From NCBI RefSeq assembly GCF_003334315.1, contig NZ_QOWR01000011.1: a stretch of 64,000 bases of DNA; one strand, 5' to 3'. Below are positions 14,241 through 57,173 of this stretch, in pieces. The notes beneath the pieces were generated by a model. It made no database searches, was not told the DNA's origin, and was given only the letters and a program-made list of their open reading frames with translations. Each line of letters opens with the position of its first letter. The first letter of the stretch is position 1. The stretch comes from Escherichia coli. GTDB taxonomy: Bacteria; Pseudomonadota; Gammaproteobacteria; Enterobacterales; Enterobacteriaceae. The position numbers were made by a program, and so were the translations under genes.

Positions 14241-15887
14241 TCAGGATTTTTTCTTCTCGCGGCTATGCAGGCCACGTTTTTCCAGACCACGGTAAATCAG
14301 CTGCTGCTGAATAATGGTTACCAGGTTGCTGACGATATAGTACAGCACCAGACCTGACGGGAACCACAGGAAGAACACGGTGAAGATGACCGGCATAAAG
14401 GTCATGATCTTCTGCTGCATCGGGTCGGTCACTGTGGTCGGCGACATCTTCTGAATGAAGAACATCGTTACGCCCATCAGGATCGGCAGGATGTAGTACG
14501 GGTCCTGTGCCGACAGGTCGTGGATCCACAGTGCAAACGGTGCCTGACGCAGTTCAACGGAACCCATCAGCATGTAGTACAACGCCAGGAAGATTGGCAT
14601 CTGGATCAGCAGCGGGAAGCAGCCGCCCAGCGGGTTAACCTTCTCAGCTTTGTACAGCGCCATCATTTCCTGGCTGATACGCTGTTTGTCATCGCCCAGA
14701 CGCTCACGCATTGCCTGAATCTTCGGCTGCAACATACGCATCTTCGCCATGGAGGTGTACTGCGCTTTGGTCAGCGGGTACATGATGCCACGAACGATAA
14801 AGGTGATGATGATAATGGAGAAGCCCCAGTTACCCACAAAGCTATGGATCCATTTCAGCAGTTTGAACAGCGGCTGAGAGATGAACCACAACCAACCGTA
14901 ATCAACGGTCAGATCCAGGTGCGGAGCAACAGCTGCCATTTTGTCCTGGATTTCCGGGCCAACCCACAGGGTGCTGTTCATCGCGCCAGTCTGACCAGGC
15001 TGAACCAATACCGGCTGAGATTTATAGCCGATAGCGGCGATGCCGTTACCCAGATTAGCGGTATAGAAGTTGTTGGTACCGTCGTTATGCGGGATCCACG
15101 CCGTCGCGAAATACTGTTGCAGCATCGCCACCCAACCACCTTTCGAAGAGATGTTCAGGTTTTCGTTATCGGCAATGGTATCGAACTTGTATTTCTCATA
15201 CTTCTCGTCAGGCGTGGAGTACGCCGCGCCACGGAAGGTGTGCAGTGCGAAGTTGCTGCTTCCGGTATCGAGATGCGGTGGCAGAGTGATGGATTGCTTC
15301 AACTGACCAAACGAGGAGATTTCCAGCGGTTTCTCGCCAGCGTTCTGCACGTTGTAGTTGACGTTGACAGCGTAATCACCACGTTTCAGGACAAACGTTT
15401 TGGTAAACGTGTTGCCTGCCGCGTCGGTATACGTCATCGGCACCTGCAGTTCGTTTTGACCTTCAGCCAGCACATAAGCGTCTTTTTCAACGTTATACAG
15501 CGGACGCGGGCCGTTAGCCGGGTTATCCGGGCCATCACGACCGGTCAGACCGCTCTGTGCCTGATAAATAAACTGCGGTGAAGTTTCCAACAGCTGGAAC
15601 GGCTGGGTAGAGTTCAGCTCTTTCGGGTAAGCAGGCAGCAGAGCTTGCTCAACATCACCACCACGGGTGTTGATGGTCAGATCAAGCACGTCGGTCTTAA
15701 CCGAGATCAGTTTCCCCTGGCCACTGGCCGGTACGCCCTGGTCGGCGGCGCTACCCGCTGCGGTGGTCGTTGTCTGCGTGGTCTGTTGGGCCTGAGGTTG
15801 CGGGTTTTTATCCTGCTCCCAGGCTTGCCAGATCATGAAAGACACGAACAGCAAAGCGATGACTAAAAGATTGCGTTGCGAATCCAT
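14241..15887 (-). CDS. yidC: membrane protein insertase YidC (Oxa1 family)
   Basis: 548-aa ORF; large periplasmic domain followed by the conserved 5-TM insertase core; conserved position next to rnpA/rpmH. Confidence 0.95.
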
Positions 15888-24868: not shown

Positions 24869-25525
24869 TTATTGGTTTACTGCATATACAACCAGAAATT
24901 GCAGCGGTGCAGTAATGATGTCCAGCGTAACAGTCACTGGCAGTAATGCTGCGGAAACACCATCCGGAATGCCTCTGGGTGAATAGTATTCATAAAATCG
25001 CACTTTAAATGGATGGTAGAACGCCATCACCTTTGAGTAATCCATGTTTTTATTTTTCTCATGGATTGTGCCTTTTAGGTTTTCCAGTGACCTGGTACAG
25101 TGTTGAACACCACAGGCAAAACCATAATGCGTTGCCAGTGCCTTTTCTTCTTCGTTATTCCAGTAGTAGTAAAGCGATATTGTGCCGGTAAATTTCTTTT
25201 TCCCCGCATTTAAAACAAATCTTGCGTCATCGGCAACCTGAATATTGTGCCGGTTAAGTGCTGGATCATTGAGCATCTTAACGATGTCATCGGCACCATC
25301 AGTGATAAGGTAATCCAGCGATTCCCCTACAAAAACATAGCCTTTTGTTCCATTACTATCTTTTGCCTGCGATAGCCCAGTGATGGTGTCTGACTGCGAT
25401 TGATACTTTCCTGAACTACCCTTTGCGGTATGGGAAACCAGAGCATACGAGATACAGCCTGAAAGCATCAGCGCCAGTGGGAATAAACCGGCAGCCTTAA
25501 AAAATCCCTTAAAATTCAACTTCAT
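24869..25525 (-). CDS. yidX: putative lipoprotein
   Basis: ORF track 24869..25642 trimmed to Met at 25525 ([24 protein letters not shown]): lipoprotein signal peptide with lipobox LSGC; 218 aa. Confidence 0.7.
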
Positions 25526-25662
25526 GATTAATCCTTTAAACGAGTAGCTAAGCCGTTGAAAGCATACTCTTCTTTCCCTCCTGTTTAGCGCCTGATATCC
25601 CTTTTCAGATTTCTGCCCGACGCATGTCATTTTTTTATGCATTGTTCTTTTTGTGATCTAAA

Positions 25663-25737
25663 TTGTAGTACAACAATATAAGTTTGTACTACATTACACG
25701 CACGGCAAACGCGAACGTCATCACGCTGGTACTACAA
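25663..25737. promoter_or_regulatory. repeated TTGTA(G/C)TACA operator-like motifs in the dgo promoter (candidate DgoR operator)
   Basis: TTGTAGTACA, its inverted copy TTGTACTACA and a third partial copy GTACTACAA lie within about 75 bp upstream of dgoR. Confidence 0.55.
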
Positions 25738-25802
25738 AGTTGCCGCGTTATGCATCGATCGGGGTAAAGTAGAGAAGAACATACAGAGCACAAGGACTCT
25801 CC

Positions 25803-26492
25803 ATGACTCTCAATAAAACCGATCGCATTGTCATTACGCTGGGTAAACAGATCGTTCACGGCAAATACGTGCCAGGCTCGCCGCTTCCGGCTGAGGCGGA
25901 ACTCTGTGAGGAGTTTGCAACCTCGCGCAACATCATCCGTGAGGTGTTCCGTTCGCTGATGGCGAAGCGGCTGATTGAAATGAAACGTTATCGCGGGGCG
26001 TTTGTGGCACCGCGTAACCAGTGGAATTACCTCGACACTGACGTACTGCAATGGGTGCTGGAAAATGACTACGACCCACGGCTTATCAGTGCCATGAGCG
26101 AAGTGCGAAATCTGGTGGAACCGGCGATTGCCCGTTGGGCAGCAGAGCGCGCGACTTCCAGCGATCTGGCGCAGATTGAATCGGCGCTGAACGAGATGAT
26201 TGCCAACAATCAGGACCGCGAAGCGTTTAACGAAGCGGATATTCGCTACCACGAGGCGGTGCTGCAGTCGGTGCATAACCCGGTGTTACAGCAACTTAGC
26301 ATTGCGATCAGTTCGCTGCAGCGGGCGGTTTTTGAACGAACCTGGATGGGCGATGAGGCCAACATGCCGCAAACGCTCCAGGAACATAAGGCGCTGTTCG
26401 ATGCGATACGACATCAGGACGGCGATGCGGCAGAGCAGGCGGCGCTTACCATGATCGCCAGCTCGACACGAAGGTTAAAGGAAATCACATGA
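25803..26492 (+). CDS. dgoR: GntR/FadR-family repressor of the D-galactonate operon
   Basis: 229-aa ORF; N-terminal winged HTH; first gene of dgoRKADT. Confidence 0.9.
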   Translation: MTLNKTDRIVITLGKQIVHGKYVPGSPLPAEAELCEEFATSRNIIREVFRSLMAKRLIEMKRYRGAFVAPRNQWNYLDTDVLQWVLENDYDPRLISAMSEVRNLVEPAIARWAAERATSSDLAQIESALNEMIANNQDREAFNEADIRYHEAVLQSVHNPVLQQLSIAISSLQRAVFERTWMGDEANMPQTLQEHKALFDAIRHQDGDAAEQAALTMIASSTRRLKEIT

Positions 26493-57109: not shown

Positions 57110-57173
57110 TGAACCGTTGTTGTCATTTGTTTTACAAAAGCAAGGGATTAAATCTCCTCCAATGGACAAAAAA

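Follow-up and report, generated by a model that had tools for sequence, protein, structure and literature searches.

The interval at positions 25526-25802 of the window, by which we mean the whole 64,000-nucleotide stretch of Escherichia coli DNA analysed here, is the entire intergenic region between yidX and dgoR, and is non-coding as judged from the sequence and the list of open reading frames (ORFs). On one side it is bounded by the divergent yidX coding sequence (24869-25525, minus strand, 218 aa), whose start codon occupies 25523-25525 and which RefSeq names yidX or YidX family protein. On the other side lies dgoR (25803-26492, plus strand, ATG at 25803), which encodes a repressor of the GntR/FadR family and is the first gene of dgoRKADT. 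Both genes were assigned from ORFs and from annotation, in the case of yidX the RefSeq annotation of matching E. coli records. Nearly all complete E. coli genomes match an 801-bp stretch around the interval, many of them with 100% identity, and the matching genomes have yidX and dgoR annotated at the same place. The ORFs downstream of dgoR match galactonate dehydratase, KDPGal aldolase and the D-galactonate transporter.

The DgoR protein encoded in the window has both domains that define the GntR/FadR subfamily, an N-terminal GntR winged helix-turn-helix (PF00392, 7e-14, residues 7-68) and a C-terminal all-helical FCD domain (PF07729, 3e-27, residues 98-218). The deposited DgoR structure, PDB 7C7E, matches it over the full length. 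The region is the already characterised control region of the E. coli D-galactonate operon, dgoRKADT. Of the 5426 complete E. coli genomes, about 400 lack any match to the 131-bp dgo control region. In E. coli ET350, IS150 interrupts yidX, the dgo operon is absent and cbrA follows directly.

Palindromes, promoters and the CRP site upstream of dgoR

Reading of the sequence together with a pattern search revealed three 11-bp palindromes of the form TTGTA-N-TACAA in the interval. Site 1 (25663-25673; TTGTAGTACAA) is a perfect palindrome with a central G, site 2 (25684-25694; TTGTACTACAT) has one mismatch, at its last base, and site 3 (25727-25737; TGGTACTACAA), a predicted DgoR-type site, has one mismatch, at base 2. 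The 10-mer forms of the first two, TTGTAGTACA and TTGTACTACA, occupy 25663-25672 and 25684-25693, respectively, and the perfect-palindrome version of site 3 reads TTGTACTACAA. Measured from centre to centre, site 2 lies 21 bp from site 1, and site 3 lies 43 bp from site 2. The original prediction, made from the sequence alone, had described three TTGTA(G/C)TACA-type copies in front of dgoR with the third one partial, and the pattern search and the simulations described below bear it out. The distances it gave, 20 and 45 bp, are replaced by 21 and 43 bp. Its description of the second copy as an inverted form of the first holds only for the central base, which is G in site 1 and C in site 2; each copy is itself a palindrome.

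Operators of the GntR/FadR subfamily are A/T-rich palindromes with TKGT and ACMA boxes and three nucleotides between GT and AC. Site 1 (TTGT-AGT-ACAA) and site 3 (TGGT-ACT-ACAA) fit this consensus completely, and site 2 (TTGT-ACT-ACAT) is off it at the last base only.

The 64-kb window contains five 11-mers that differ from TTGTANTACAA at no more than one base, where 1.4 would be expected, and three of the five fall within 75 bp in this interval. None of 1000 first-order Markov simulations placed three matches within 80 bp and only three placed two, and a Poisson estimate of such a cluster in the whole window is ~1.5e-6. The two other matches (14572-14582 and 57127-57137; ATGTAGTACAA and TTGTTTTACAA) were considered as further DgoR targets and rejected, as they lie inside long ORFs (548 aa on the minus strand and 470 aa, respectively) and their count is at chance level. 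Single near-matches of this kind inside genes are what might be said for the three motifs being a chance cluster with no regulatory meaning. Against that explanation stand the simulations, the conservation of the positions in about 80 species and the direct binding and genetic data published on sites 1 and 2, by which it is already refuted, and we give it practically no credence.

Sites 1 and 2 are IR1 and IR2, the DgoR operators described in the literature. The published IR1 oligonucleotide, CTAAATTGTAGTACAACAATAT, is identical to positions 25658-25679 of the window. As related in the accessible parts of later papers, DgoR dimers bind two closely spaced inverted repeats over the dgo promoter, of which IR1 is perfect and IR2 carries one mismatch (Singh et al. 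2019, cited in PMC11705089 and PMC12288454). D-galactonate alters the conformation of DgoR and releases it from DNA, as electrophoretic mobility shift assays have shown; binding and its release by D-galactonate have been reported for fragments with IR1 and IR2. The accessible text on Sort-Seq at this promoter (Belliveau et al. 2018, PMC6003448) reports, for -140 to -110 from the ATG, a repressor footprint that depends on DgoR and is gone both in a dgoR deletion strain and in galactonate. It further reports that affinity purification with DNA covering -145 to -110, followed by mass spectrometry, recovered DgoR, and describes the operon as autorepressed (PMC6003448). On window coordinates this footprint corresponds to 25663-25693, and sites 1 and 2 together span -140 to -109. 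Reg-Seq reproduced the CRP site, mentioned an upstream and a right DgoR site and treated the promoter as one with no undiscovered sites. We found no evidence against the IR1, IR2 and CRP part of this arrangement in the sequence comparison or in the published data.

The original prediction had proposed a GntR/FadR-type dimer operator array for an autoregulated DgoR, to be checked against published DgoR mapping. As far as that mapping is accessible, the footprint falls on sites 1 and 2, and for these two copies the proposal is upheld by the match to IR1 and IR2, the footprint, the affinity capture and the Pfam and 7C7E matches of the protein; the third copy is a predicted member of the array only.

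A class II CRP site (TGTGATCTAAATTGTA) occupies 25652-25667. The left half is a perfect match, and the TTGTA that forms the right half doubles as the left half of site 1. Compared with the CRP consensus TGTGA-N6-TCACA, the site has seven of the ten specified bases, the right half being weak, and its TGTGATC is conserved in at least 95% of 82 sequences. In class II CRP-dependent promoters the CRP site is centred near -41.5 and overlaps the -35 element. Here the centre, at 25659.5, would lie at -41.5 to -42.5 relative to the start of the galactonate-inducible promoter P1, as deduced from the -10 hexamer. According to the accessible Sort-Seq text (Belliveau et al. 2018, PMC6003448), a class II CRP site is present whose TGTGA half lies between -160 and -140 and whose weak right half overlaps the expected -35. 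The TGTGA mapped in that study is at 25652-25656 of the window, so the weak CRP-like half-site that had been predicted to overlap the first palindrome is real and functional, and corresponds to this site.

The -10 hexamer of P1, TACATT (25690-25695, plus strand), overlaps operator 2 and is named as the wild-type -10, within -120 to -100, in the accessible text of Belliveau et al. (PMC6003448). Given the published -10 and a standard 17-bp spacer, the -35 hexamer would be AGTACA at 25667-25672 on the plus strand, and transcription from P1 would start at about 25701-25702. With this placement IR1 would cover the P1 -35 and the right half of the CRP site, and IR2 would cover five of the six bases of TACATT.

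For cells grown on glucose, the same Sort-Seq text places a second RNA polymerase site at -30 to -70 relative to the ATG (PMC6003448). We identified a conserved block, GGTAAAGTAG (25762-25771, plus strand; conservation 0.93), that is nearly invariant in about 80 species and holds TAAAGT at 25765-25770. This hexamer is probably the -10 of a downstream basal promoter, P2, equivalent to the Sort-Seq polymerase site. A conserved TTG/TG (25740-25742), 2 bp beyond the end of site 3, may be the P2 -35. A simple sigma-70 consensus scan of 25400-25950 found no promoter, because the published promoters are too weak for such a scan.

A Dam site, GATC (25655-25658), lies inside the TGTGATC of the CRP half-site and is conserved across genera. 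In Salmonella, a hemimethylated GATC at -147 upstream of dgoR has been described, together with ON/OFF heterogeneity that depends on Dam and CRP. The adenine of the GATC in the window is also at -147 from the ATG, and by analogy such Dam- and CRP-dependent heterogeneity of dgoR may occur in E. coli as well.

Conservation across enterobacteria and the third palindrome

We compared the dgoR loci of 80 species (Enterobacteriaceae and a few Erwiniaceae), together with divergent E. coli strains, and aligned 82 distinct dgoR upstream sequences, taking conservation as the mean majority fraction per column. Sites 1, 2 and 3 were found at about -140, -119 and -76 from the ATG in almost all of the roughly 80 loci scanned. 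Their mean conservation is 0.99, 0.95 and 0.91, respectively, against 0.59 and 0.56 for the spacers between them, and all three are conserved above the surrounding non-coding DNA of orthologous promoters, as is expected of functional sites. Conservation in orthologous promoters had been set beforehand as the test on which the original prediction could fail; all three motifs are conserved there, and the prediction withstood it. Further conserved blocks in the alignment are TTTTTGTGATCTAAA, the block holding TAAAGT, and AAGGA (25792-25796, plus strand; conservation 0.91), recognised from the sequence as the Shine-Dalgarno element of dgoR.

The three sites differ in how closely they keep to the palindrome. 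Site 1 is perfect in about 75 of the 82 orthologous promoters. Site 2 is perfect in one locus only, and nearly all of the roughly 80 loci have it at 21 bp from site 1. Site 3 is perfect in none of the 82, has one or two mismatches in 78 of them, and forms an island of conservation between poorly conserved flanks (0.56 and 0.70). Of the 82 sequences, 73 place it 43 bp from site 2 and the others 42 or 44 bp, with one outlier at 40 bp. Escherichia, Salmonella, Citrobacter and Klebsiella carry the mismatch at base 2; in Enterobacter, Kosakonia, Buttiauxella, Cedecea and others it is at base 8. The bases of site 3 that are conserved (T1, G3, T4, A5, C9, A10 and A11) are those of the DgoR motif.

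A few further observations were made in the alignment and in individual genomes. In Shigella flexneri the equivalent of site 1 is TTGTAGCGCAA (Suvorova 2015, S1), with two changes in what is otherwise a near-invariant operator and the strongest of the three. The soil isolate E. coli VCSW7 (L083:170-355) has a 7-bp deletion between sites 2 and 3 that shortens their spacing from 43 to 36 bp and breaks the helical phase, with all three sites intact. A TTGT at 25642-25645 is present in 80-95% of the 82 sequences, and the ATTG at this element is invariant in an alignment of eight sequences. It precedes the TTGT of site 1 by exactly 21 bp, is in phase with sites 1 and 2, and has the look of a single half-site or of an element resembling a -35. 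Between yidX and dgoR there are two copies of the octamer TTATGCAT (25635-25642 and 25748-25755), a repeat that is probably due to chance, as the downstream copy is unconserved outside Escherichia.

An RNA-level cause for the conservation of site 3 was considered and rejected. There is no Rfam match at E<=1, 20 aligned leader sequences yield no consensus structure, and the E. coli leader folds no better than its shuffles (z -0.55).

Role of site 3 and proposed mode of regulation

Site 3 has been predicted before. Suvorova, Korostelev and Gelfand (2015, PLoS One, S1 file) listed three predicted DgoR sites in E. coli, one of which, CACGCTGGTACTACAAAGTTG, is site 3, and also three sites in E. fergusonii, Enterobacter 638, Cronobacter, Klebsiella, Shigella, Salmonella and Serratia. 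We found no binding or mutational evidence for site 3 in the accessible literature, in which the mutagenesis scans report two DgoR sites, and a literature search for genomic SELEX or ChIP-exo data on DgoR returned incidental mentions only. From its position, site 3 would lie at about +26 to +36 from the deduced P1 start. The spacings of 21 and 43 bp, corresponding to two and about four helical turns, would place all three sites on one face of the DNA.

A bolder reading, which we hold to be possible but less likely than not, is that selection maintains site 3 as a functional but sub-optimal DgoR operator, in helical phase with IR1 and IR2. This reading draws on the finding that the site is never perfect, carries one or two mismatches nearly everywhere, and has its mismatch swapped between base 2 and base 8 from one lineage to another.

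Alternatively, site 3 may be conserved for a cause other than DgoR, as part of the upstream or -35 region of P2 or as the site of another regulator. DgoR would then act through IR1 and IR2 alone, and the likeness of site 3 to the DgoR motif would be due to descent or coincidence only. The experimental papers describe two DgoR sites only, the accessible Sort-Seq text (PMC6003448) mentions no repressor feature at -76 to -66, where site 3 lies, and the candidate P2 -35 begins just past its end; moreover, the mismatch of site 3 in most species is at A8, in the AC dinucleotide that is important in the GntR/FadR consensus. The pattern of conservation argues the other way. Conservation in site 3 falls exactly on the columns of the DgoR palindrome, and the central base varies as in a dimer site. 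A one-mismatch match to the DgoR motif is expected at only ~2e-5 per bp, yet about 78 of the 82 sequences have retained one at a constant distance, and independent comparative genomics assigned the site to DgoR (Suvorova 2015). We regard a cause unrelated to DgoR as rather unlikely.

A stronger role for site 3 can also be imagined, in which it cooperates with IR1 and IR2 through protein contacts or a small DNA loop and full repression of P1 needs three phased sites. The spacings are close to whole helical turns, to within 1 bp in nearly all species, and a site at +26 to +36 would, by the deduced geometry, be too far downstream to block initiation by itself. The related FadR-family repressor LldR is reported to act via two operators, with looping that depends on their angular orientation. 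However, the published description is of a dimeric DgoR, one dimer each occupying IR1 and IR2, and no tetramer or looping has been reported for it. A 43-bp loop would be very short, the deletion in VCSW7 breaks the phase on which such cooperation would depend, and neither Reg-Seq nor the accessible Sort-Seq text (PMC6003448) reports a mutational signal at site 3. Cooperation of this kind appears improbable to us.

In the mechanism that we propose, DgoR dimers occupy IR1 (25663-25673) and IR2 (25684-25694) when D-galactonate is absent, as the literature shows. Since IR1 lies over the -35 and the right half of the CRP site and IR2 over the -10, bound DgoR would be expected to exclude both RNA polymerase and CRP from P1. 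D-galactonate acts as the inducer, changing the conformation of DgoR so that the DNA is released, and cAMP-CRP on TGTGATCTAAATTGTA then activates P1 by a class II mechanism; both steps have also been shown in the literature. Since the operon begins with dgoR, the repressor also regulates its own synthesis. To this we would add site 3 as a conserved, deliberately imperfect DgoR site, which most likely serves as a weak auxiliary operator, strengthening repression or damping P2. It cannot be a strong block on P2, since the accessible Sort-Seq text shows P2 visibly active in glucose with DgoR bound (PMC6003448). Taken as a whole, we hold this explanation of dgoRKADT control, by DgoR at IR1 and IR2 and by CRP, with site 3 as a proposed auxiliary operator, with high confidence.

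Every element described here is already published or predicted, so this analysis adds little; the small details of site 3 are the only new part. The dgo region is a textbook-style repressor/activator switch that was correctly recognised from its sequence. Site 3 has persisted throughout the evolution of the Enterobacteriaceae, yet it went unremarked in two mutagenesis studies with base resolution. If it is functional, it would be a second layer of control missed by mutagenesis scans, and might tune the basal promoter that supplies DgoR or tighten repression of the inducible one. Establishing its role would sharpen the picture of a system that serves as a model in quantitative work on promoters and on GntR/FadR allostery, and would leave the general picture unchanged.

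Comparison with known systems

The nearest known system is the E. coli dgoRKADT control region itself, as far as its published descriptions are accessible (Singh et al. 2019; Belliveau et al. 2018, PMC6003448), and the locus in the window is this very locus. The IR1 oligonucleotide, the footprint, the -10 TACATT and the CRP TGTGA can all be placed on window coordinates. There is no difference at sites 1 and 2 or at the CRP site, and the third site is unmentioned in the accessible experimental papers. The predicted DgoR regulon of Suvorova 2015 contains the same three E. coli sites. That study covered few genomes and included no analysis of spacing or strength, whereas the comparison made here covers about 80 species and reveals the fixed 21- and 43-bp spacings and a site 3 that is never perfect.

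Among related regulators, LldR at lldPRD resembles DgoR at dgo in being a FadR-subfamily repressor for a sugar or organic acid, with palindromic operators of the TKGT-N3-ACMA type. The LldR operators O1 and O2 flank the lldPRD promoter, one of them downstream of the promoter elements, and phasing-dependent repression has been reported. In contrast, DgoR has two adjacent operators directly on the -35 and -10, its downstream site is predicted only, and a loop or a dual role would be hypothetical for DgoR. NanR, also of the GntR/FadR family, is similar to the dgo system in that, according to the accessible text of PMC8012715, several dimers of a sugar-acid repressor assemble on a three-unit promoter array. 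The two arrays differ in layout: the (GGTATA)3 units of NanR are abutting tandem direct repeats (PMC8012715, accessible text), whereas those of dgo are separate palindromes 21 and 43 bp apart.
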